Assembly: GCF_001677475.2 (NCBI RefSeq) | Contig: NZ_CP015229.1 | From: Escherichia coli | GTDB taxonomy: Bacteria > Pseudomonadota > Gammaproteobacteria > Enterobacterales > Enterobacteriaceae | Length of the DNA stretch: 64,000 nt | Strand: one strand, 5' to 3' | Shown: one piece after another, positions 1,534 to 29,709 of the stretch | Layout: every line of letters begins with the position of its first letter | Position numbering within the stretch: the first letter of the stretch is position 1 | Program-made: the position numbers and the translations under genes | Notes under the pieces: model-generated | Seen by the model: only the letters and a program-made list of their open reading frames with translations | Database searches by the model: none | What the model was told of the DNA's origin: nothing

Positions 1534-2424
1534 ATGTCTCTACACTCTCCAGGTAAAGCGTTTCGCGCTGCACTGTCTAAAGAAAATCCATTGCAGATTG
1601 TTGGCACCATTAACGCCAACCATGCGCTGTTGGCGCAGCGTGCCGGATATCAGGCAATTTATCTCTCCGGCGGTGGCGTGGCGGCAGGGTCGCTGGGGCT
1701 GCCCGATCTCGGTATTTCTACTCTTGATGACGTGCTGACAGATATTCGGCGTATCACCGACGTTTGTTCGCTGCCGCTGCTGGTGGATGCGGATATCGGT
1801 TTTGGTTCTTCTGCTTTTAACGTGGCGCGCACCGTGAAATCGATGATTAAAGCCGGTGCGGCAGGATTGCATATTGAAGATCAGGTTGGTGCGAAACGCT
1901 GCGGTCATCGTCCGAACAAAGCGATCGTCTCGAAAGAGGAGATGGTGGATCGGATCCGCGCGGCGGTGGATGCGAAAACCGATCCTGATTTTGTGATCAT
2001 GGCGCGCACCGATGCGCTGGCGGTAGAGGGGCTGGATGCGGCGATTGAGCGTGCGCAGGCCTATGTTGAAGCGGGTGCCGAGATGTTGTTCCCGGAGGCG
2101 ATTACCGAACTCGCCATGTACCGCCAGTTTGCCGATGCGGTGCAGGTGCCGATCCTCGCCAACATCACCGAATTTGGCGCAACACCGCTGTTTACCACCG
2201 ACGAATTACGCAGCGCCCATGTCGCAATGGCGCTGTACCCACTTTCAGCGTTCCGCGCCATGAACCGCGCCGCTGAGCATGTCTACAACGTCCTGCGTCA
2301 GGAAGGGACGCAGAAAAGCGTCATCGACACCATGCAGACCCGCAACGAGCTGTACGAAAGCATCAACTACTACCAGTACGAAGAGAAGCTCGACGACCTG
2401 TTTGCCCGTAGCCAGGTGAAATAA
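1534..2424 (+). CDS. prpB: 2-methylisocitrate lyase
   Basis: 296 aa [17 protein letters not shown]..., recognised as E. coli PrpB; first gene of prpBCDE. Confidence 0.96.
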
Positions 2425-2468
2425 AACACAACGAAAAATATCTCGACCCTACAAATGACGAGGACAAC

Positions 2469-3638
2469 ATGAGCGACACAACGATCCTGCAAAACAGTAC
2501 CCATGTCATTAAACCGAAAAAATCGGTAGCACTTTCTGGCGTTCCGGCGGGCAATACGGCGCTCTGCACCGTGGGTAAAAGTGGCAATGACCTGCATTAC
2601 CGTGGCTACGATATTCTTGATCTGGCGGAACATTGCGAATTTGAAGAAGTGGCGCACCTGCTGATCCACGGCAAACTGCCGACCCGTGACGAACTCGCCG
2701 CTTACAAAACGAAACTAAAAGCCCTACGTGGCTTACCGGCTAACGTGCGTACTGTACTGGAGGCTTTACCTGCGGCGTCACATCCGATGGATGTCATGCG
2801 CACCGGCGTTTCCGCGCTCGGCTGCACACTGCCGGAAAAAGAGGGGCACACCGTCTCTGGTGCGCGGGATATTGCCGACAAACTGTTGGCGTCACTTAGC
2901 TCGATTCTTCTCTATTGGTATCACTATAGCCACAACGGCGAACGCATCCAGCCGGAAACTGATGACGATTCCATCGGCGGTCACTTCCTGCATCTGCTGC
3001 ATGGCGAAAAGCCATCGCAAAGCTGGGAAAAGGCGATGCATATTTCACTGGTGCTGTACGCCGAGCACGAGTTTAACGCCTCCACTTTTACCAGCCGGGT
3101 GATTGCGGGCACCGGCTCTGACATGTATTCAGCCATTATCGGCGCGATTGGCGCACTGCGCGGGCCGAAACACGGTGGGGCGAATGAAGTGTCGCTGGAG
3201 ATCCAACAACGCTACGAAACGCCGGACGAAGCCGAAGCAGATATCCGCAAACGCGTGGAAAACAAAGAAGTGGTCATTGGTTTTGGTCATCCGGTTTATA
3301 CCATCGCCGACCCGCGTCATCAGGTGATCAAACGCGTGGCGAAGCAGCTCTCGCAGGAAGGCGGCTCGCTGAAGATGTACAACATCGCCGATCGTCTGGA
3401 AACGGTGATGTGGGAGAGCAAAAAGATGTTCCCCAATCTCGACTGGTTCTCCGCTGTTTCCTACAACATGATGGGGGTTCCCACCGAGATGTTCACCCCA
3501 CTGTTTGTTATCGCCCGCGTCACTGGCTGGGCGGCGCACATCATTGAACAACGTCAGGACAACAAAATTATCCGTCCTTCCGCCAATTACGTTGGCCCGG
3601 AAGACCGCCAGTTTGTCGCGCTGGATAAGCGCCAGTAA
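2469..3638 (+). CDS. prpC: 2-methylcitrate synthase
   Basis: 389 aa ORF, citrate-synthase family, position after prpB. Confidence 0.96.
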
Positions 3639-3671
3639 ACCTCTACGAATAACAATAAGGAAACGTACCCA

Positions 3672-5123
3672 ATGTCAGCTCAAATCAACAACATCCGCCC
3701 GGAATTTGATCGTGAAATCGTTGATATCGTCGATTACGTGATGAACTACGAAATCAGCTCCAAAGTAGCCTACGACACCGCACATTACTGCCTGCTCGAC
3801 ACTCTCGGCTGCGGTCTTGAAGCCCTTGAATACCCGGCCTGTAAAAAACTGCTGGGGCCAATTGTTCCTGGCACCGTCGTACCTAACGGCGTGCGCGTCC
3901 CCGGAACTCAGTTCCAGCTCGACCCCGTCCAGGCGGCATTTAACATCGGCGCGATGATCCGTTGGCTCGATTTCAACGATACCTGGCTGGCGGCGGAGTG
4001 GGGCCATCCTTCCGACAACCTCGGCGGCATTCTGGCAACGGCGGACTGGCTTTCGCGCAACGCGGTCGCCAGCGGCAAAGCGCCGTTGACCATGAAACAG
4101 GTGCTGACCGGAATGATCAAAGCCCATGAAATTCAGGGCTGCATCGCGCTGGAAAACTCCTTTAACCGCGTCGGCCTCGACCACGTTCTGTTAGTGAAAG
4201 TGGCTTCCACCGCCGTGGTCGCCGAAATGCTCGGCCTGACCCGCGAGGAAATTCTCAACGCTGTTTCGCTGGCGTGGGTGGACGGTCAGTCGCTGCGCAC
4301 CTATCGCCATGCGCCGAACACCGGCACGCGTAAATCCTGGGCGGCGGGCGATGCCACTTCCCGCGCGGTACGTCTGGCACTGATGGCGAAAACGGGCGAA
4401 ATGGGTTACCCGTCAGCCCTGACTGCGCCTGTGTGGGGCTTCTACGACGTCTCCTTTAAAGGTGAATCGTTCCGCTTCCAGCGCCCGTACGGTTCTTACG
4501 TCATGGAAAATGTGCTGTTCAAAATCTCCTTCCCAGCGGAGTTCCACTCCCAGACGGCAGTTGAAGCGGCGATGACGCTCTATGAACAGATGCAGGCAGC
4601 AGGCAAAACGGCGGCGGATATCGAAAAAGTGACCATTCGCACCCACGAAGCCTGTATTCGCATCATCGACAAAAAAGGACCGCTCAATAACCCGGCTGAC
4701 CGCGACCACTGCATTCAGTACATGGTGGCGATCCCGCTGCTATTCGGGCGCTTAACGGCGGCAGATTACGAAGACAACGTTGCGCAAGATAAACGCATTG
4801 ACGCCCTGCGCGAGAAGATCAATTGCTTTGAAGATCCGGCATTTACTGCTGACTACCACGACCCGGAAAAACGCGCCATCGCCAATGCCATTACCCTTGA
4901 GTTCACCGACGGCACACGATTTGAAGAAGTGGTGGTGGAGTACCCAATTGGTCATGCTCGCCGCCGTCAGGATGGTATTCCGAAACTGGTCGATAAATTC
5001 AAAATCAATCTCGCGCGCCAGTTCCCGACTCGCCAACAGCAGCGCATTCTGGAGGTTTCTCTCGACAGAACTCGCCTGGAACAGATGCCGGTCAATGAGT
5101 ATCTCGACCTGTACGTCATTTAA
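3672..5123 (+). CDS. prpD: 2-methylcitrate dehydratase
   Basis: 483 aa ORF, MmgE/PrpD family, operon position. Confidence 0.96.
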
Positions 5124-5162
5124 GCAAACAGCGGTAAGGCGTAAGTTCAACAGGAGAGCATT

Positions 5163-7049
5163 ATGTCTTTTAGCGAATTTTATCAGCGTTCGATTAACGA
5201 ACCGGAGAAGTTCTGGGCCGAGCAGGCCCGGCGTATTGACTGGCAGACGCCCTTTACGCAAACGCTCGATCACAGCAATCCGCCGTTTGCCCGTTGGTTT
5301 TGTGAAGGCCGAACCAACTTGTGCCACAACGCTATCGACCGCTGGCTGGAGAAACAGCCAGAGGCGCTGGCGCTGATTGCCGTCTCTTCGGAAACAGAAG
5401 AAGAGCGCACCTTTACCTTCCGCCAGTTACATGACGAAGTGAATGCGGTGGCCTCAATGCTGCGCTCGCTGGGTGTGCAGCGCGGCGATCGGGTGCTGGT
5501 GTATATGCCGATGATTGCCGAAGCACATATTACTCTGCTGGCTTGCGCGCGCATTGGCGCTATTCACTCGGTGGTGTTTGGGGGATTTGCCTCGCACAGC
5601 GTGGCGGCGCGAATTGATGATGCTAAACCGGTGCTGATTGTCTCGGCTGATGCCGGAGCGCGCGGTGGCAAAATCATTCCCTATAAAAAATTGCTCGACG
5701 ATGCGATAAGTCAGGCGCAGCACCAGCCACGCCATGTTTTGCTGGTGGATCGCGGGCTGGCGAAAATGGCACGCGTCAGCGGGCGGGATGTCGATTTCGC
5801 GTCGTTGCGCCATCAACACATCGGCGCGCGGGTACCGGTGGCGTGGCTGGAATCCAATGAAACCTCCTGCATTCTCTACACCTCCGGCACGACCGGCAAA
5901 CCTAAAGGCGTGCAGCGTGACGTTGGCGGATATGCGGTGGCGCTGGCGACCTCGATGGACACCATTTTTGGCGGCAAAGCGGGCGGTGTGTTCTTTTGTG
6001 CTTCGGATATCGGCTGGGTGGTGGGGCATTCGTATATCGTCTACGCGCCGCTGCTGGCGGGGATGGCGACTATCGTTTACGAAGGATTACCGACCTGGCC
6101 GGACTGCGGCGTGTGGTGGAAAATCGTCGAGAAATATCAGGTTAGCCGGATGTTCTCAGCGCCGACCGCCATTCGCGTGCTGAAAAAATTCCCTACCGCT
6201 GAAATTCGCAAACACGATCTTTCGTCGCTGGAAGTGCTCTATCTGGCGGGAGAACCGCTGGACGAGCCGACCGCCAGTTGGGTGAGCAATACGCTGGATG
6301 TGCCGGTCATCGACAACTACTGGCAGACCGAATCCGGCTGGCCGATTATGGCGATTGCTCGTGGTCTGGACGACAGGCCGACGCGGCTGGGAAGCCCCGG
6401 CGTGCCGATGTATGGCTACAACGTGCAGTTGCTCAATGAAGTCACTGGTGAGCCGTGTGGTGTCAATGAGAAAGGGATGCTGGTGGTGGAAGGACCATTG
6501 CCGCCGGGCTGTATTCAGACCATCTGGGGCGATGACGACCGCTTTGTGAAGACTTACTGGTCGCTGTTTTCCCGTCCGGTTTACGCCACGTTTGACTGGG
6601 GTATCCGCGACGCTGACGGTTATCACTTTATTCTCGGGCGTACCGACGATGTGATTAACGTTGCCGGGCATCGGCTGGGAACGCGCGAGATTGAAGAGAG
6701 TATTTCCAGTCATCCGGGCGTTGCCGAAGTGGCGGTGGTTGGGGTGAAAGATGCGCTGAAAGGGCAGGTGGCGGTGGCGTTTGTCATTCCGAAAGAGAGC
6801 GATAGTCTGGAAGACCGCGACGTGGCGCACTCGCAAGAGAAGGCGATTATGGCGCTGGTGGACAGCCAGATTGGCAACTTTGGCCGCCCGGCGCACGTCT
6901 GGTTTGTCTCGCAATTGCCGAAAACGAGATCCGGAAAAATGCTGCGCCGCACGATCCAGGCGATTTGCGAAGGACGCGATCCGGGGGATCTGACAACCAT
7001 TGATGATCCTGCGTCGTTGGATCAGATCCGCCAGGCGATGGAAGAGTAA
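5163..7049 (+). CDS. prpE: Propionyl-CoA synthetase
   Basis: 628 aa ORF with acyl-CoA synthetase AMP-binding motif YTSGTTGKPKG. Confidence 0.96.
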   Translation: MSFSEFYQRSINEPEKFWAEQARRIDWQTPFTQTLDHSNPPFARWFCEGRTNLCHNAIDRWLEKQPEALALIAVSSETEEERTFTFRQLHDEVNAVASMLRSLGVQRGDRVLVYMPMIAEAHITLLACARIGAIHSVVFGGFASHSVAARIDDAKPVLIVSADAGARGGKIIPYKKLLDDAISQAQHQPRHVLLVDRGLAKMARVSGRDVDFASLRHQHIGARVPVAWLESNETSCILYTSGTTGKPKGVQRDVGGYAVALATSMDTIFGGKAGGVFFCASDIGWVVGHSYIVYAPLLAGMATIVYEGLPTWPDCGVWWKIVEKYQVSRMFSAPTAIRVLKKFPTAEIRKHDLSSLEVLYLAGEPLDEPTASWVSNTLDVPVIDNYWQTESGWPIMAIARGLDDRPTRLGSPGVPMYGYNVQLLNEVTGEPCGVNEKGMLVVEGPLPPGCIQTIWGDDDRFVKTYWSLFSRPVYATFDWGIRDADGYHFILGRTDDVINVAGHRLGTREIEESISSHPGVAEVAVVGVKDALKGQVAVAFVIPKESDSLEDRDVAHSQEKAIMALVDSQIGNFGRPAHVWFVSQLPKTRSGKMLRRTIQAICEGRDPGDLTTIDDPASLDQIRQAMEE

Positions 7050-19538: not shown

Positions 19539-21539
19539 ATGCTTAAATTTCGCCGCGATCTTAACGGTTACGGTGGAGTTATTAACGAAGGGCATAACGA
19601 TCAATACGAATTTGAAATTGCTTTCTCCAGTGAACAGCCTTATCAGCGCCAATTCTGGGATGAGCAAAATCAAGAAATGGTGGTATTAGATGAAATTCTG
19701 GTACATACACCGGAAGCGGTTGATCTGTCTCGTCTGAATAATAACGCTCCGTTGCTGTTCAATCACAATTTCGATAATCACATTGGTGTCGTTTGTAACG
19801 CTCGAATCGATGCGGATAACGTAGGTCGTGCTCTGGTTAAATTCTCCAAGCATGGGACTTTGGCTAATGATATTCGTAACAAAGTCATCGAAGGTACGAT
19901 GGAAAAAATTTCTGTCGGCTATGACATTAAAGAGTATCACATCGACTACGCCAAATCGCAACTCATTGTTTCTAAATGGATTCCTCACGAGGTTTCATGG
20001 GTCACGGTACCCGCAGACGACACAGTGGGTCTGAATCGCTCTCTAAATACTATCACAGTTAATTTGGAGGCTAAACGCGATATGACTAAAGAACAAATCG
20101 AAGAAATCAAAAACGAAGAAGCCGCTCCGGTTGAAGAAACTCCGGTAGAAGAAAATAAAGAACCGGAAGTTGAAGAAACTCAAGAGCGCCAAGTTGAAGA
20201 GAATAAAGAAAATGAAAATCTCGAAGACGGAAAAGACGCTGAACATCCTGAAAGTGTTGATGATGATAGTTCAACTGTTCGGGAAGAAGAAATAAAAGAA
20301 GAACGTGAAGCTGCTCCGGTTGAAGAAGAAAAAATTGAAGAAGTGGCTGAACGTTCCGAAGAAGACGAATTAGAAATCCGCGAGATCGCGCGGGAACTAA
20401 ATATTGATGACTCTGAATTAGCACGTGCATTGTCGATTAAAGACATGACGCCGGAAGCATTCCGCACTAAGGCACTAAATAATCTCGTCAATGCTCAACG
20501 TAATAACGAACAACAAATTAAGGACTCTAAAATGGAAAAAACTTTTGACCTGAACAACGTAATTCGCTCTCTGGTAGATGGTGCTGCTCTGGGTGCTAAC
20601 GAAGCTGAATATTCCGCTATGGCTGCTACTGCAACTATGCAGCGTGGTCGTGCTGCTCGTGGTGGCTCCGTATTCGTTCCGGCTGCTGCTCTGCGTGCTG
20701 CTGCTGCTGGTAACACTAAAGCTACTCTGGAAGCTGTAACCGACGAAAAACTGCTGACTGAATCCTACATCGAAATGCTGATGCCTCAGAGTGTTTTAGG
20801 CCGCCTCGGTGTGACCGTTCTGTCTGGTCTGAATAGCCCGATCGCTGTTCCGAAAATGACTGCTTCCAGCGTTGACGCTTTCGGCTTCGTTGATGAAAAC
20901 GGTGCTGCACCGGAAAGCAAAGCTCAGTTTGAAAACGTGAAAATGGCTCCTAAGACTTTCGCAGGTGGCAACCCGATCAGCCGTCAGTCTCTGAAAACCG
21001 TTCCGGGTATCGCTACCCTGATCACTGATCACATTAACAAAGCTGTTCGCATCAAACTGGAACAACTGATTCTGTCTGATAAAGCTAACGACCGTGGTCC
21101 GGCTGGTCTGGTTAAGCAACTGGTAGACGCGGGTCGCGTTACTAAGAAAGCCGCTTTCTCTTACAAAGACTTCCTGAAAGAAATTGCAGCACTGACCGAC
21201 GCTGGCGTTCCTGCTCAGGCGATCAAGTTTGCGATGAGCGGTGCAACTGCTGCTGAACTGGAATCTACCCTGAAAGATAACGGCGTTTCCGGTTATATCA
21301 TCGAAAACGGCAAACTGGCTGGTTACGAAGTAGTTACTTCTGGTGTTATCCCGGCAGACCACATCGTTCTGGGCGCGTTCGACGGTATCACCATTGGTGA
21401 GTGGGGCGGTCTGGAACTGGATATGGACGACACTACCTACCGTGCACAGTCTGCAATCGTTCCGCGTATCTGGGTAGATCTGGATTACGTTGTAACCCAG
21501 CCGGAAGCTCTGAAAGTTCTCCAGATTGGCGGTGAATGA
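19539..21539 (+). CDS. Fused prohead serine protease, E/K-rich scaffold-like linker and HK97-fold major capsid protein (666 aa)
   Basis: N-terminal PLLFNHNFDNHIGVV...KISVGYD fits the caudovirus prohead protease signature; residues ~190-320 are E/K-rich; C-terminal ~340 aa resemble HK97-type capsid proteins. Confidence 0.75.
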   Translation: MLKFRRDLNGYGGVINEGHNDQYEFEIAFSSEQPYQRQFWDEQNQEMVVLDEILVHTPEAVDLSRLNNNAPLLFNHNFDNHIGVVCNARIDADNVGRALVKFSKHGTLANDIRNKVIEGTMEKISVGYDIKEYHIDYAKSQLIVSKWIPHEVSWVTVPADDTVGLNRSLNTITVNLEAKRDMTKEQIEEIKNEEAAPVEETPVEENKEPEVEETQERQVEENKENENLEDGKDAEHPESVDDDSSTVREEEIKEEREAAPVEEEKIEEVAERSEEDELEIREIARELNIDDSELARALSIKDMTPEAFRTKALNNLVNAQRNNEQQIKDSKMEKTFDLNNVIRSLVDGAALGANEAEYSAMAATATMQRGRAARGGSVFVPAAALRAAAAGNTKATLEAVTDEKLLTESYIEMLMPQSVLGRLGVTVLSGLNSPIAVPKMTASSVDAFGFVDENGAAPESKAQFENVKMAPKTFAGGNPISRQSLKTVPGIATLITDHINKAVRIKLEQLILSDKANDRGPAGLVKQLVDAGRVTKKAAFSYKDFLKEIAALTDAGVPAQAIKFAMSGATAAELESTLKDNGVSGYIIENGKLAGYEVVTSGVIPADHIVLGAFDGITIGEWGGLELDMDDTTYRAQSAIVPRIWVDLDYVVTQPEALKVLQIGGE

Positions 21540-21730
21540 ACTCCTGTAGAACCATCTGAACCTTCCCCCGATTTGGGGGAAGAAAATCTGATTCCTGAAC
21601 CGGAAGAAGAATCCCAGACGGTTAAGGCGAAAGCCACAGTTAAAAAACAACGTAAAACTAAAGAATAATAATTAGCCCTGCCTAACGGTGGGGCTTTTTT
21701 GTATGTAAATACTCCATAAAGGGGGTAACT

Positions 21731-22021
21731 ATGTTCAAATTATCAGAATCACAATTATCAAGAATGTTTAAGAGTGCTCCTGTATTTGTGGTGGAAGGTG
21801 GTAAATCAATTCGTGCTTATCATGAAATTACTACTACCGACGAATCAGGGGTAATGACAGAAACAGAATTTCTATTCTGTCGTGAGGGAGACTTAAAGCA
21901 AGGTGATATTGTCACAGTAGAAAACCAGCGTTTCAAAGTTCAATATATTAAGCGCAATGGTGACAATACAACTGATTGCTTTATTACTCTGGCAGGGGGT
22001 ACACATGCTCGCTACCGTTAA
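21731..22021 (+). CDS. Putative head-tail joining / head-completion protein (96 aa)
   Basis: Size and position after the capsid gene; RBS AAAGGGGG. Confidence 0.4.
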   Translation: MFKLSESQLSRMFKSAPVFVVEGGKSIRAYHEITTTDESGVMTETEFLFCREGDLKQGDIVTVENQRFKVQYIKRNGDNTTDCFITLAGGTHARYR

Positions 22022-23346: not shown

Positions 23347-26271
23347 ATGCAATCAATCCAATTTAAACGAACTAGTGTTTCTGGCAAAAAACCTACGCCG
23401 GAACAATTACAGGTCGGTGAGGTAGCAATCAACCTTAAAGACCATGTTATTTTCACCAAAGACCGAGATAATGCCGTAGTTCAAATCTCTGTTTCTCCTG
23501 AAACTCACACTGCATTAGAAACTAAAGTTAATGCGAATAAGAAAGAATTAGACGGCAAGATTACTACAAATCACAACAATATTAACGCTAAAGTAGATGA
23601 AATTAAACAAACTACTGATGCAACTATCGCAGCAAATCACGCAGAAATTAACAATAAAGTTGATGTGATTAAGCGCGAAACCGATGCGACAATCACGGCT
23701 AATAAAAATAAAGCTGCTTCCGACCTTGCTGGCGTTAAAGCTGAATTGTCCGATACCATCACCGCTAATAAAAATGCGGCTGCTGTAGCAACTCAGGAAC
23801 TGGACACCCGCATCAATAAAAAAGTTGATGATAACAAAGCTAAAACTGATGCAACTATCGCCAGCAATCACAAAGCAATCAATGACAAAGTTGATTTGAT
23901 TAAGGCCGAGACTGACCGCACTATCGCAGCAAATAAAACATATGCTGATACTCAGCTAACTAATGCTACTAATGATCTGAATACTGTCATTGCTGCAAAT
24001 AAAAAAGAAGCTGCTGATAGCGTGGCTGCATTAACTAAGACTGTAAACACTAAAGATACAGCGATTCATAGAAAAGTTGACGAGAATAAAGCACTGACCG
24101 ACGCGGAATTATCCCGTTTGTCTGGACGACTTGAAGATGTTGCTAGTATTGGTCAAAACCGAGGCGAATTGCCAGTAGATGCTAATCTTGATCACTATGG
24201 TCCACGTTCAGAATTTGCTGGTATTTGGGGTAAATCGACTTCAACGAATGCACAACCAAGTCACAATTTCCCAGAAGAAAATGCTGTAGGTGTTCTGGAA
24301 GTTTTCACAGGCGGTCAATTCTCTGGGACTCAGCGTTATACAACACGCTACGGTAATATCTACATTCGTTCTCTTACCGCTACATGGAATGGTACTGATG
24401 GTCCGTGGTCGCCGTGGCGCAATATTCAGATGGGTACACGTCCGCTTTCGTCAACCATCGATCTTAATGATTTGGGTGGAGTTGAGCATTTTGGTTTATG
24501 GCGCAATAGCTCTAACTCAATTGCGGCTCTAGAAAGGAATTTCCCAGAAGCTGGGGCGATGGCACAAGGTCTTTTAGAAGTCTTTGAGGGTGGCAACTAC
24601 TCCCGCACTCAGCGTTATACGACCAGAATGGGCGTTGTATATGTTCGCTGTCTTGCTGCTGCATGGGATGCTAGTGCTCCTAAATGGGGTCCGTGGCAAC
24701 AAGTAGGTAATGTAACACCGTCTACTTTCTATGACGGAAACCTGAACAACTTCAAAACACCTGGTTTATATAACATTTTAGGCACTGACAAAGTTACTAA
24801 CCGTCCTGTTGCAGAAGGTGTTCCGGTTGAGATGACCGCATTGCTTGAGGTTAAACAGCGTGCTTCCGGTGGCGCTATTTTCCAACGTTTCACTACCGCA
24901 GGAACGGGAACTACTACCCGTGGTCGTGTTTTTGAACGTGCAATGACAAATAATATCTGGGGAGATTGGCACGAAGTACATACATCATATTCTATGCCAA
25001 TTACTTTAGGTATCGGTGGGATTAAAACACAATTAGAATCTTTAGATTGGCAAACTTTTGATTTTGTTCCTGGTAGCATGTTTAGCGTGCCATTGAATAA
25101 AATTACCAATATGCCAGCAAAAATGGATTGGGGAACAATTGACGGAAACCTGATCATGTTTTCCGTTGGTCCTAGTGAACACACTAGCACAGGGCGTACT
25201 GTTCAGGTTTGGCGTGGTACTGTGTCTCAAGCAAACTACCGTTATTTTGTTGTTCGTGTATTTGGTAATTCAGGAGAGAGAACTTGCACCGTTCGCCGTG
25301 TTGCTCTTGAGGATGGTCGCCATACATGGACAGCACAACAAGATTTTAACGGCGCGGTTAACTTCGGTGGGTCTGTTGTTAACTTTAAAACAGCCACTAA
25401 CTTTAATAACACTACCAGTTTTAAAACAGAAGCTAAATTTCTTTCATCTAATGCATTCCGTATGTATGGCGGTAATTTTGGTGCATTCTTGCGTAATGAT
25501 GGTGAAAGTGTTTATCTTCTTTCCACCAATGAAAATGATAAAGATGGAAACTATAATACAAATAGACCTTTCCGGTATCAGTTAAAAACTGGTGATGTTA
25601 CTTTGGGTGGAACTAGCGGTGCTGATATTTTAAGATTAAAAAGTAGTTCTCTTGCTGCTACCTTTGGCGGTGATGTTAATTTAAGTAAAGGCGTATTGAC
25701 GTTTGAAGCTGGCGGTAAGCAATCTCGCGATTATTTCCGGTTTAATCATTGGGGTGATAGCAATAAAGCTCGCGATAACATCATTCAGTTAGAAGATAGT
25801 AAAGGTGCTCATTTTTCCACTGAACGCACACTGGCAACGGGTGCAATCAAAACTAAGTTCTTTGGTGAAGTTGAATCCGATGGTCGATTAACTATTAAAC
25901 GTCCGGGTGATGCTATTGTATTATCGACTACAGCTAGCAACTCGTTGCATATTCGTGGTGATGTTGGTGGAAGCAATAACTGGTATATTGGTAAAGGTGG
26001 TGCTGATAATTCACTAGCATTTTATAGCTACGCAACTAAAGCGGGTATACACATCACAAATAATGGTGAGATATCATTTGCCCCGCAAAATTTTGCTGGT
26101 ATTAACATTAACAAAGACCGTATCTATATCAATGCTACACAATGGATTGCTAATCATTCCGGTTCATGGGATGGACAGTGGAGAGAAGAAGCACCCATCT
26201 TTATTGATCAGGGTAGTGTTGGACAAGATAGCTATTATCCTCTTATTAAAGGACATAGCCAGATCACAGGT
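23347..26271 (+). CDS. Tail fibre protein (974 codons), 3' end interrupted by an IS3-family element
   Basis: Repeated KVDxIKxxTDATIxANxxxIN helical repeats; C-terminal GSNNWYIGKGGADN resembles T7 gp17 tip motif NNWYIGRGSDN; stop codon TGA is the first 3 bases of the IS. Confidence 0.75.
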
Positions 26272-26328
26272 TGAATCGCCACGGGTTTAACAGACACCTC
26301 AGAGTCATTTAAGATGGCTTAAAGAGAG

Positions 26329-26613
26329 GTGCCCATGAGCGGTAAGCGTTATCCCGAAGAGTTTAAAATTGAAGCAGTCAAACAGGTTGTTGATCGCGGT
26401 TATTCTGTTGCCAGCGTTGCAACACGTCTCGATATCACCACCCACAGCCTTTACGCCTGGATAAAGAAGTACGGTCCGGATTCTTCCGCTAATAAAGAAC
26501 AGTCAGATGCTCAGGCCGAGATCCGCCGTCTCCAGAAAGAGCTGAAGCGGGTTACCGACGAACGGGACATATTAAAAAAAGCCGCGGCGTACTTCGCAAA
26601 GCTGTCCGACTGA
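26329..26613 (+). CDS. IS3-family transposase OrfA (HTH, leucine-zipper region)
   Basis: 94 aa ORF MSGKRYPEEFKIEAVKQVV...; ends shortly after the A7 slippery site. Confidence 0.85.
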   Translation: MPMSGKRYPEEFKIEAVKQVVDRGYSVASVATRLDITTHSLYAWIKKYGPDSSANKEQSDAQAEIRRLQKELKRVTDERDILKKAAAYFAKLSD

Positions 26614-27482
26614 GGTACGCCTTTATCCGTGACAACACCTGTTGCTGGCCTGTTCGCCTGCTCTGTCGGGTGCTGGATGTTCATCCCAGTGGTTTTTACG
26701 CCTGGCTTCAGCAGCCGCATTCACAACGCCATCAGGCAGACCTGAGGCTGACAGGGCAGATTAAACAGTTCTGGCTGGAATCGGGATGCGTCTATGGTTA
26801 TCGCAAAATCCATCTGGATCTGCGGGACAGCGGGCAACAGTGCGGAGTGAACAGAGTCTGGCGACTGATGAAACGTGTCGGGATAAAGGCTCAGGTCGGA
26901 TACCGGAGCCCGCGGGCACGTAAAGGCGAGGCCAGTATCGTGTCGCCCAACAGGCTCCAGCGACAGTTCAATCCGGATGCTCCGGATAAGCGTTGGGTAA
27001 CGGACATAACCTACATCAGGACCCACGAAGGCTGGCTGTATCTTGCCGTGGTTGTTGATCTGTTCTCACGCAAAATTATCGGCTGGTCCATGCAATCCCG
27101 GATGACAAAGGACATTGTCCTGAACGCACTGCTGATGGCTGTATGGCGCCGTAATCCCCAAAAACAGGTGCTGGTTCATTCGGATCAGGGCAGTCAGTAC
27201 ACAAGCCATGAGTGGCAGTCGTTCCTGAAATCACACGGCCTGGAGGGCAGCATGAGCCGTCGCGGTAACTGCCATGATAATGCGGTTGCAGAAAGCTTTT
27301 TCCAGTTGTTGAAACGCGAACGGATAAAGAAAAAGATCTACGGAACGCGGGAAGAAGCCCGCAGCGATATTTTTGATTACATCGAAATGTTTTATAACAG
27401 TAAGCGTCGGCATGGTTCCAGCGATCAGATGTCACCGACAGAATATGAAAACCAGTATTATCAACGGCTCGGAAGTGTCTAG
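26575..27482 (+). CDS. IS3-family transposase OrfB (integrase catalytic DDE domain), expressed as OrfAB by -1 frameshift; ORF-track ATG at 26670
   Basis: -1 frame relative to orfA, open from the slippery site; motifs WVTDITYIRT, VVDLFSRKIIGW, HSDQGSQYTS, NAVAESFF. Confidence 0.85.
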
Positions 27483-27548
27483 ATTATCCGTGGCGATTCA
27501 GACAAATTTATTAAATTTGGAATCACTACCCGAAAACCAGAAGAACGA

Positions 27549-27938
27549 ATGAGAGAGCAAACCAGAAAGAGCAACTTCACTCACCGATTAATCTTTACTC
27601 ATGAGTTTGAGGATGGTTGGAAAGCTGCCGATTTAGAGCATGAAGTAAAACAACGCTTCAAGACTCATGCCGCACCCTACAAAGATTTCAAGGATGGATG
27701 GTCGGAAACTCTGACTATCGATGAGTTGCCACACTTACAGCAACTGGTTTATGACTACCTAACCAATCAACCGGACGAGGCTAATATGTGGGTATCCCCG
27801 AAAGATGTATTTGATGACGATACATTCAAGCTACATACTCACTTCTACGGCATCAATAAACCGGAATTTTTCTGTATTGATGACGATAGTCCTGATTTAA
27901 TGGATGAATACTTTAATTCTCTCTTAGACGCTGCCTAA
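27549..27938 (+). CDS. Hypothetical protein (129 aa from first ATG; open frame extends upstream to the IS end at 27501), probably 5'-truncated; possible GIY-YIG/T5orf172-like domain
   Basis: Frame is open from 27501 (DKFIKFGITTRKPEERMREQ...); KFGITT...R...E pattern recalls the second motif of GIY-YIG/T5orf172 domains; weak, from memory only. Confidence 0.35.
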   Translation: MREQTRKSNFTHRLIFTHEFEDGWKAADLEHEVKQRFKTHAAPYKDFKDGWSETLTIDELPHLQQLVYDYLTNQPDEANMWVSPKDVFDDDTFKLHTHFYGINKPEFFCIDDDSPDLMDEYFNSLLDAA

Positions 27939-27950
27939 CGCAATTAAATT

Positions 27951-27973
27951 AAAAAGGGGTACATCTGTACCCC
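27951..27973 (-). terminator. Hairpin terminator downstream of the recombinase gene
   Basis: GGGGTAC-ATCT-GTACCCC stem-loop preceded on the plus strand by AAAAA (T-tract on the minus strand). Confidence 0.5.
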
Positions 27974-28011
27974 TTAAAGCGTTTATCTCGTTATACGTCG
28001 ATTTAGGCCGC

Positions 28012-29709
28012 TTAAATTCCAAATTCCTGCAACAATCCCGGTTGTTCTTCTTCTGGTTTCCAGTTCTTATCTGTCAGCATTTCTAAACATGGATGCAGAA
28101 CAAGCCCGTTGCTCTCCAGAATCTGCCTATCATTGATAGTCTTCACGTCTACAAAAATTCTCCCTTTCCGGTTACGGCGTGACCTCTCGATCACTATCCT
28201 TTGCGTCTTCCCGTCGATGTACTCCATCACAAAATGATTATAATTGGTATCAATCTTGTAACATTTTATAGACTTAACAGCTTCTTTAATCTTCAATCGA
28301 ACTTTTAACCGTTCCTCGCTGCAAACATCCTCTAAATCAAATTGTGCGAGCTTCTCCCAGCCTTGAGAATCAACTGAATACATGTTCTCTTCTATTACCT
28401 TAATCTGGTTATAGATGGCCTCACGCTCATGATTCAGGGTAGTAATCTGGTCGGCTAACTCCTTCGTTGCTCCTGTCATTGCAGAAAGACTAATCAGGTT
28501 ATCAATCTTGCGTGAAATGTCTTCAATCTGGGCTTGCATTCCTGGGATCGGATTGGCCTTATCCTCAGCAATCCAGATTTTATCCGCCAGCAATTGCAAT
28601 ACAGCCTTATCCAGTTGATCACCACGAAAGCCCCAATTTGGATGATCACAATTGGTCCTCCTGCTATCTGCGCCATCGCACATATAACGATATTGGGCTA
28701 ATCTCTCTTTTGATGCTCCGCTTCTCTTAACCATACTTGCCCCACAATGACCACATCTAAGCAAACCAGCACCACTTAACAGGGTAATAACAGGACTAGA
28801 CTTAGTAGGATAAGAAAACGACCTCAGTCCTATAGTCTTCTTGAGTTGATAGAACTCGGCATCTTCCATCACTCGCGGGTAATAATCCTTTAACTCATAT
28901 GTCACACCTTCAATGGTTATCTCTTTGATACCAAGTAAAGCGCGGTTAGAGAACATCCTGGCTAACATAGAACGCGCCCATTTCTTAGGGGTATCTTTGT
29001 TCGTTGTGTAATTAGGCGGGGCGATTCTTTCATTCAGATAATCAAGAACCCGACCATTAGAATAACCATTCTGTTTTAATTCAACGATTTTCTTGATAAC
29101 AGGAAAATACACCGGATGTGGAAGCACATAACCCGATGAAGTATCAGCCCACCATATATTGCGACCAACTTCCTCGATTGCCACTGCCGGATTTTGTGGA
29201 TTCTCCTGATGGGCTTTAACCTTGAGTAGTGCGCTTGAGTTAGTGCGATTGCGTTTAGTCTGACTTTCCTCATTTGCACGAGCAAACAACATTACACTCA
29301 ACAGTAAATCGATGGGATTAGCATTAACCGATTCTTTGCTATATACCTTCCCATCCATACCAGTAACAATTGTTATTCCCCTGCGGATGATCGAAAGGAA
29401 TAGCTCTTGAGCTTCAATAACAGATTGACGGGAGATACGGTCTAAGTTTTCCACCACCAGCCAGCTACCAACCGGAACGGATCGACCAATTTCATCCAGA
29501 AAACGAGATAATGCACCTGTTTTACTGTTAGCCCCTTTGAATGCAGATACACCGAAATCCTGATAGGAAGTAACTAGCTCAAGATCATATTTTGCGGCTA
29601 TCTCTTTCGCTGTTCTCTTCTGGCGTTCAAATGAGCTACCATCGGCTTGCTTCATGGAAGAGAAGCGAATATACGAATACAGTTTAGTTTTCATACCATT
29701 TCCAAACAA
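28012..29709 (-). CDS. Large serine recombinase (integrase), 565 aa
   Basis: N-terminal resolvase-type catalytic domain (YSYIRFSSMKQ with candidate nucleophile Ser, VVENLDRISRQ), recombinase domain, Cys-rich zinc ribbon CGHCG...C...C, C-terminal coiled-coil. Confidence 0.88.
   Translation of the reverse strand: MFGNGMKTKLYSYIRFSSMKQADGSSFERQKRTAKEIAAKYDLELVTSYQDFGVSAFKGANSKTGALSRFLDEIGRSVPVGSWLVVENLDRISRQSVIEAQELFLSIIRRGITIVTGMDGKVYSKESVNANPIDLLLSVMLFARANEESQTKRNRTNSSALLKVKAHQENPQNPAVAIEEVGRNIWWADTSSGYVLPHPVYFPVIKKIVELKQNGYSNGRVLDYLNERIAPPNYTTNKDTPKKWARSMLARMFSNRALLGIKEITIEGVTYELKDYYPRVMEDAEFYQLKKTIGLRSFSYPTKSSPVITLLSGAGLLRCGHCGASMVKRSGASKERLAQYRYMCDGADSRRTNCDHPNWGFRGDQLDKAVLQLLADKIWIAEDKANPIPGMQAQIEDISRKIDNLISLSAMTGATKELADQITTLNHEREAIYNQIKVIEENMYSVDSQGWEKLAQFDLEDVCSEERLKVRLKIKEAVKSIKCYKIDTNYNHFVMEYIDGKTQRIVIERSRRNRKGRIFVDVKTINDRQILESNGLVLHPCLEMLTDKNWKPEEEQPGLLQEFGI

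Follow-up and report, generated by a model that had tools for sequence, protein, structure and literature searches.

The capsid gene of a prophage in the Escherichia coli DNA analysed here (64,000 nucleotides of contig NZ_CP015229.1, assembly GCF_001677475.2; hereafter the window) ends in a TGA stop codon, beyond which the same reading frame stays open for 42 codons, up to tandem TAATAA stops just ahead of an intrinsic terminator. On comparing this region with its relatives, we consider it likely that low-level readthrough of this UGA has been selected and that it yields a minor capsid species with a C-terminal tail, made of a disordered acidic and proline-containing linker and a Lys/Arg tip. 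The elements concerned are the following.

19539..21539, plus strand: 666-amino-acid open reading frame (ORF), from ATG 19539 to TGA 21537-21539, with an S78 prohead protease, a Glu/Lys-rich scaffold-like middle part and an HK97-fold major capsid domain.
21534..21540, plus strand: putative recoding site GAA-TGA-A, that is the final sense codon, the stop codon and the A at position +4.
21540..21665, plus strand: 42-codon frame-0 extension, TPVEPSEPSPDLGEENLIPEPEEESQTVKAKATVKKQRKTKE.
21562..21582, plus strand: 8-bp G+C-rich hairpin CTTCCCCC-GATTT-GGGGGAAG, inside the extension, 22 nt past the stop (-15.9 kcal/mol, z = -3.6).
21666..21671, plus strand: tandem in-frame stops TAATAA closing the extension, 2 nt ahead of the terminator stem.
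21674..21701, plus strand: intrinsic terminator with a 9-bp stem, a 4-nt loop and a T-run (stem-loop 21674-21695).

A first-pass annotation had described the 666-aa ORF, its TGA at 21537-21539, the 42 open codons and the tandem TAATAA, and all of these are present. It had also reported an 8-bp GC hairpin about 25 nt past the stop; the hairpin is there, but it starts at 22 nt. The statement that a terminator-like structure is first met only past the extension is right, since the stem-loop at 21674-21695 with its T-run is the sole such site on this strand. Taken in the window alone, the open frame is not beyond chance, because 13 of the 48 ORFs of at least 96 aa listed there likewise have at least 42 open codons past their own stop. 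The weight of the argument therefore rests on the relatives.

About 54 copies of the region, at 73-95% nucleotide identity, are present on E. coli chromosomes, and 18 of them were read. About 40 further loci came from IMG/VR, one of which (L078) encodes a capsid protein 100% identical to that of the window, and 8 more came from other assemblies, the total examined being 84; the first 76 loci represent 35 distinct sequences and 28 distinct extensions. A scan of genome contigs yielded two distant loci only, and a metagenome scan with the terminator pattern returned mostly chance matches, together with two concordant loci. We observed an open frame-0 extension, with an in-frame closing stop just ahead of a terminator, at all 84 loci. 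According to the first-pass annotation, the idea would fall if homologues had stop codons or frameshifts at various places in the extension; in the 84 loci none was found. The closing stops of the first 76 loci are TAATAA (68) or TGATAA (8), 2 nt from the stem, and at locus L168 a single TAA stands 10 nt from a terminator of its own.

Several features of the way in which the extension varies favour a translated frame. Eight length classes are found (27, 28, 32, 33, 42, 43, 44 and 45 codons, L168 contributing the eighth class) and at least six independent indels are needed to explain them; all are multiples of three, whereas the non-coding stretch directly past TAATAA varies by 1-2 nt. Among at least 66 substitution events there is no in-frame stop in frame 0, and stop polymorphisms occur at 4 columns in frame +1 and at 8 columns in frame +2. 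Codon changes were counted by events, after the pairwise ratio of non-synonymous to synonymous polymorphism (pN/pS) had failed to separate the frames. In such conditions, we observed that the single-step codon changes in frame 0 comprise 19 synonymous and 27 non-synonymous ones, versus 25% synonymous expected (p = 0.009), whereas those in frames +1 and +2 match expectation (frame 0 against the others, Fisher p = 0.037). In some alleles, the tail finishes with a GRP-containing, AT-hook-like motif (KKVGRPPKAK, KRGRKPKE), and the GRPP motif of one tail allele varies synonymously only (GGA/GGT, CGT/CGC, CCA/CCG). As judged from these alignments, the frame and the composition of the extension are maintained and its exact amino-acid sequence is weakly constrained, which fits a disordered tail.

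The unit made of GA(A/C)-TGA-A and the extension was also found, always in frame, behind three capsid C-domains that are mutually only 38-41% identical: type A (the window), type B ending in ..VVQKKVD (L016-L018) and the P0124 type ending in ..AVIKAGE (L168). On its other side, it precedes two different terminator and downstream modules, L168 having another terminator and another next gene. Exchanges on both sides have thus kept the tail joined in frame to the capsid ORF.

The stop codon itself is equally constant. A TGA followed by A ends the capsid ORF at all 84 loci (76 and 8 further ones), and the final sense codon is for Glu or Asp in each of the 76 (GAA 55, GAC 12, GAG 7, GAT 2). TAA ends all 34 distant capsid homologues that were tabulated (32-48% identity), mostly as TAA-T, and none of them has an in-frame tail. 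According to the literature, highly expressed bacterial genes favour UAA-U, which terminates most efficiently, and in E. coli tRNA-Trp is particularly liable to misread UGA followed by A (PMC5289835). To judge from its codon usage (see below), TGA-A is an unusual stop for a strongly codon-optimised, abundant capsid domain. When capsid, Trp and extension were joined in one query, no sense codon in place of the TGA was found in any of the 120 close protein clusters that were listed (160 had been scored), and none of the 120 enters the extension. Of 3209 homologues, the 150 representatives with the best scores were listed; none of these has a sense codon at the TGA or aligns beyond capsid residue 334. 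The absence of sense-codon fusions agrees with a tail that only a minority of the subunits can bear. No suppressor tRNA was called in the window. ARAGORN reported a 91-nt 'tRNA-Glu' (anticodon ttc) on the minus strand of the relative L020 (20851-20941), inside a 140-aa gene, which is probably spurious. The low-level readthrough suggested by the first-pass annotation thus gains support, as far as sequence comparison can give it, from the constant TGA-A, from the multiple-of-three indels and from the absence of stops and the synonymous enrichment confined to frame 0.

The capsid gene contains the following parts.

19656..20024, plus strand: Peptidase_S78 domain, residues 40-162 (Pfam, E = 2e-9).
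20757..21524, plus strand: Phage_capsid (HK97-fold) domain, residues 407-662 (Pfam, E = 1e-26; AlphaFold2 pLDDT above 90).
20520..20534, plus strand: putative internal start, with a Shine-Dalgarno-like AAGGA (20520-20524), 7 nt and ATG 20532-20534; product of 335 aa, residues 332-666.

The ORF matches PHROG 617, 'major head protein' (E = 5e-92), and PDB 8gta, the solved capsid protein of roseophage R4C (E = 6e-25); together with the two Pfam domains, these matches bear out the protease, scaffold and capsid fusion recognised earlier. The fraction of optimal codons is 0.58 in residues 1-338, 0.85 in residues 339-666, 0.62 in the extension and 0.46-0.54 in neighbouring genes. This step in codon usage was found in nearly all of 19 lineages, and a Met lies 2-16 residues ahead of an [FY][DNS]L motif in 18 of the 19. 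Because of the step and of the conserved Met position, the main capsid product probably starts at the internal ATG 20532, the 666-aa fusion being a minor form; indeed, some gene callers predict the 335-aa protein (P0007). The computed masses are 35,143 Da for the subunit from the internal start and 39,986 Da for the same subunit with the extension. On the opposite strand, a 284-aa ORF (20796-21650, minus) has its codons aligned exactly with those of the capsid gene and spans the TGA and the extension. As a gene it was rejected: strong codon bias is the most likely source of this ORF, which is broken by TTA codons in alleles L045 and L067.

Readthrough would add 43 residues, or about 4.8 kDa. 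The first 28 of these are rich in Glu and Pro with a pI of 4.05, and the last 15 have a pI of 10.7, with 6 Lys and 1 Arg. From its AlphaFold2 pLDDT (47-68, against values above 90 in the capsid domain), the extension would be disordered. Were Trp inserted at the stop, tryptic digestion would give the junction peptide VLQIGGE-W-TPVEPSEPSPDLGEENLIPEPEEESQTVK. The last codons of the capsid ORF (..CTC CAG ATT GGC GGT GAA TGA) hold no slippery heptamer, and the extension of the window lies in frame 0, not in frame -1. A weak sigma-70-like match (TTAAAA, 18 nt, AATAAT; 9 of 12 positions) at 21640-21669 overlaps the end of the extension; such matches are rarer there than expected by chance.

According to the reading that we favour, most ribosomes would start at ATG 20532 and stop at TGA 21537, producing the 335-aa subunit of 35.1 kDa. 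Fewer would start at 19539 and make the protease-scaffold-capsid fusion, a minor form bearing the protease and the scaffold. At UGA-A, a small fraction of the ribosomes, perhaps about 1%, would insert an amino acid with the help of the near-cognate tRNA-Trp and read the 42 codons down to TAATAA. The resulting minor subunit, about 4.8 kDa larger, would carry an acidic, proline-rich linker ended by a Lys/Arg-rich tip. The head of roseophage R4C is a T=7 shell of 415 subunits (PMC10276861); if the head encoded here is built in the same manner, a handful of its subunits would be tailed. The orientation of the C-terminus could not be derived from the monomer model, and that the tail probably faces outward rests on analogy with T7 10B and with the P22 coat protein: the C-terminus of the latter is outward-facing (PMC9962691) and that of the T7 capsid protein is used for display (PMC1635266). 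The basic tip could then bind polyanions, for example DNA or cell-surface polymers.

A stable hairpin is present early in the extension in every allele, although not always the same one. In long alleles, the stems are invariant and the loop varies (GATTT, AAATC, GATTC). Short alleles have an unrelated 11-bp hairpin with a GAAA loop, 9-10 nt past the TGA (-19.8 kcal/mol, z = -5.5), and in L168, where the loop has gained 9 nt in frame, the stem is retained (-19.2 kcal/mol, z = -4.6). The spacing of the short-allele hairpin resembles that of known 3' stimulators, whereas that of the long-allele hairpin does not. The hairpin could be a stimulator, an mRNA stabiliser or the relic of a frameshift stimulator.

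Among more distant relatives, there are some in which a similar tail may follow the capsid gene in another frame. The clearest is L167 (Logan ERR4405785_461), with a capsid of 41% identity. Its gene ends in ..CTG GAA AAA AAG TCT CTG TGA-T and frame 0 closes after 12 codons; the -1 frame encodes the tail KVSVIPPVTDGDGEVSVKKAKKAKAE (26 aa, acidic then Lys/Ala), which stops at GAA-TAA just ahead of a near-identical terminator, AGCCCTGCCTAGTGCGGGGCTTTTTT, the very one of the L017-type E. coli allele. The in-phase heptamer A_AAA_AAG occupies 2381-2387, and 6 nt separate it from a stem-loop of 38 nt (-18.2 kcal/mol, z = -4.0), the whole spanning 2381-2431. By its sequence, this arrangement is a textbook dnaX-type -1 frameshift cassette, and it gives substance to the comparison with T7 10A/10B made in the first-pass annotation, as the frameshift would lead into a similar tail. 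In-phase heptamers are also present in L107 (A_AAA_AAG) and in L152 (A_AAA_AAA), both with Lys/Ala-rich -1 ORFs that reach the terminator. L167 alone was counted as a solid case of frameshifting, L107 and L152 being leads based on their heptamers, and a -1 reading of L101, L104, L107 and the phage record DCP80 is likewise a lead from sequence. The similarity of the extension peptide to the -1 tails of L101, L107 and L104, which are low-complexity sequences, is not significant. Between L101 and L107, frame 0 past the TAA looks as conserved as the -1 frame, partly because of compensatory changes in a hairpin. This 8-bp hairpin lies 6 nt past the capsid TAA, with arms CAGGAGAA and TTCTCCTG in L101 and CAGGAGCA and TGCTCCTG in L107, which differ by one compensatory pair change; in L107 it is 18 nt from the slippery site, too distant for a classical stimulator. 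The closing stop is 5-7 nt from the terminator stem in L101, L104 and L107.

Some other relatives have short Ala/Lys tails that are constitutive and need no recoding, for example ..GTPAEAKAAKQ and ..AVQATKK. In this family of capsid genes, some or all of the subunits thus seem to receive a tail, first acidic and then basic, by the device that suits the phase; the same indifference to the recoding device is reported for Ig-like capsid extensions (PMC5009743). A megablast of phage genomes gave no match, and no isolated phage with a capsid of the family of the window was found in the phage collection searched. The sole phage record with a close protein match is Escherichia phage DCP80 (L019, PQ671644.1, 4358-9277; 45% identity), which ends in TAA with a second stop one codon on. 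This 141-kb record is filed as a T4-like member of the Straboviridae and carries a lambda-like portal and protease-capsid module; it may be a chimeric assembly or reflect an unusual acquisition.

Several observations weigh against selected readthrough. The pairwise pN/pS of the extension (0.69) is no lower than that of the other frames (0.76 and 0.78) and is far above that of the capsid end and of the next gene (0.26 each). The TGA-type loci all trace to one origin, in which case 'always TGA-A' is a single evolutionary event. In wild E. coli with fully active RF2, UGA readthrough may be well below 1%. At 22 nt, the hairpin of the long alleles is beyond the 6-10 nt usual for stimulators, and no covariation was detected in its stems across alleles. 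The region is A-rich, so that Lys-rich peptides arise in any frame. Finally, the prophage of the window is a deleted, defective copy without tail genes.

A first alternative is a 3' untranslated region that runs from the TGA to the terminator, for instance a hairpin that stabilises the mRNA followed by a spacer, the open frame being the little-drifted leftover of a longer capsid protein. Such a leftover would agree with the frequency of 42 or more open codons past stops in the window, with the pairwise pN/pS that does not set frame 0 apart, with the common ancestry of the TGA at all loci, and with invariant stems around a varying loop, which suggest a constraint on the RNA. We nevertheless hold it to be unlikely: at least six independent indels were all multiples of three next to non-coding DNA that varies by 1-2 nt, and, with at least 66 substitutions, stops were gained or lost 12 times in the two other frames and never in frame 0. 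Moreover, the synonymous enrichment is confined to frame 0, the in-frame end stop is kept even when one of the two mutates (TAATAA to TGATAA) and the unit stands in frame behind three capsid types. Another explanation is that translation of the spacer matters and not the peptide. A ribosome that has read through and stands at TAATAA would cover the 5' arm of the terminator, suppress termination or protect the 3' end of the mRNA, and so make the expression of the head-completion and tail genes further on depend on a small, fixed share of the translation of the capsid gene. The closeness of the closing stop to the stem (2 nt in most E. coli-type alleles, 10 nt in L168, 5-7 nt in L101, L104 and L107) speaks for it, and so does a frame that is far better conserved than the amino-acid sequence. 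We find it improbable, as only the first ribosome behind the polymerase could act, with an effect capped at the frequency of readthrough, and intrinsic terminators leak anyway. In addition, the acidic and proline-containing then Lys/Arg make-up is kept across alleles of differing nucleotide sequence, the GRPP motif varies only synonymously and relatives bear short constitutive tails of the same kind. One may combine both functions and regard the tail ORF as a portable recoding cassette, joined to different capsid genes by the device that suits the phase (UGA readthrough in frame 0, A_AAA_AAG in -1) and partly regulatory, in which rare ribosomes stopping on the 5' arm of the terminator would both tag a few capsid subunits and set the transcription of the downstream head-completion and tail genes; this proposal is quite doubtful.

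Initiation or re-initiation after the TGA, which would make the extension a separate small gene, is suggested by an ATG that overlaps the stop in many alleles (gAATGAac). This ATG is however out of frame, opens 7 codons only and is absent in GAC-TGA alleles; frame 0 has no Shine-Dalgarno sequence and no start codon (ATG, GTG or TTG) that is conserved, the TTG at codon 12 being lost in L007 and L017, and we give such a gene very little credence. It is more remote still that the UGA encodes selenocysteine. The stable hairpin downstream could be thought of as a bacterial selenocysteine insertion sequence (SECIS), but no Rfam family reaches even a weak score, the loop varies (GATTT, AAATC, GATTC), and other alleles have the unrelated GAAA-loop hairpin. 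Furthermore, the hairpin is 22 nt from the UGA, whereas a SECIS lies immediately after it (PMC7026636). Selected readthrough of the UGA is hence the reading that we retain.

The prophage, of siphovirus type and about 22 kb long, adjoins prpBCDE and its head genes are lambda-like. The other features located in the window are the following.

1534-7049: prpBCDE genes.
15497-17404: large terminase.
17982-19493: portal.
21731..22021, plus strand: gene after the capsid unit (96 aa), which heads the downstream module.
23347-26274: tail-fibre gene.
26670-27482: IS transposase, between the tail-fibre gene and the serine recombinase.
27549-27938: nuclease fragment, in the same interval.
28012-29709, minus strand: serine recombinase.

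Most structural genes of this prophage stop at TAA. An intact relative (L020) occupies about 2,724,000-2,757,000 of NZ_CP038394.1, in E. coli DEC5A; where the window has its deletion, within 26274-29709, this relative has genes for the tail tube, the tape measure, the tail tip and lysis, over about 12 kb. It encodes DUF2163 and tail-tip genes, which we take to be linked to RcGTA-type tails. On comparison of 7200-30000 of the window with L020, the integration sites differ: the prophage of the window lies beside prpE, and the DEC5A relative interrupts hicB.

Phage Q-beta offers the closest known parallel by mechanism. Its coat gene, like the capsid gene of the window, ends in a single UGA. In Q-beta this UGA is read at low frequency by a normal tRNA, and about 5% readthrough gives the minor extended coat protein A1 of the particle (PMC7026636); for the window, such readthrough is predicted. 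In other respects the two systems differ, since Q-beta is a single-stranded RNA levivirus with an unrelated coat fold and a folded extension of about 200 aa needed for infectivity, whereas the window has an HK97-fold capsid in a double-stranded DNA (dsDNA) tailed prophage and a tail predicted to be disordered, of 27-45 aa across alleles. The coat UGA of Q-beta likewise has A as the next base. By product, the nearest systems are those of tailed dsDNA phages in which one capsid gene gives a major and a minor C-extended protein (the latter being predicted in the window): T7 and T3 10A/10B, Lactobacillus phage A2 gp5A/5B and Listeria phages A118, A500 and PSA (PMC5009743). All of these use -1 or +1 frameshifting, unlike the frame-0 extension behind a stop described here; the T7 extension, like that of the window, is not an Ig-like domain (PMC5009743). 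The dnaX-type cassette (A_AAA_AAG, about 6 nt, stem-loop) is matched exactly at the capsid end of L167 and is absent in the window. The gene architecture and the capsid fold of the window are also those of R4C and of other siphoviruses that have an RcGTA-like tail and a fused protease-capsid gene (PHROG 617; PDB 8gta). No case of capsid readthrough in a tailed phage was found in a review of recoding (PMC5009743) or in the literature searches made.

The case also bears on annotation, as gene callers take the TGA for the end of this capsid protein and, in many cases, overlook its probable internal start. Minor C-extended capsid proteins are recurrent and poorly understood in tailed phages, and the described cases all involve frameshifting. 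If our reading is true, a readthrough version in an E. coli prophage widens the recoding repertoire of dsDNA phages and would join the very small number of bacterial systems, RNA phages apart, that are candidates for selected stop-codon readthrough. The relatives with apparent -1 frameshifts or constitutive tails would then constitute a natural experiment on the tailing of a few capsid subunits and on the exchange of recoding signals.

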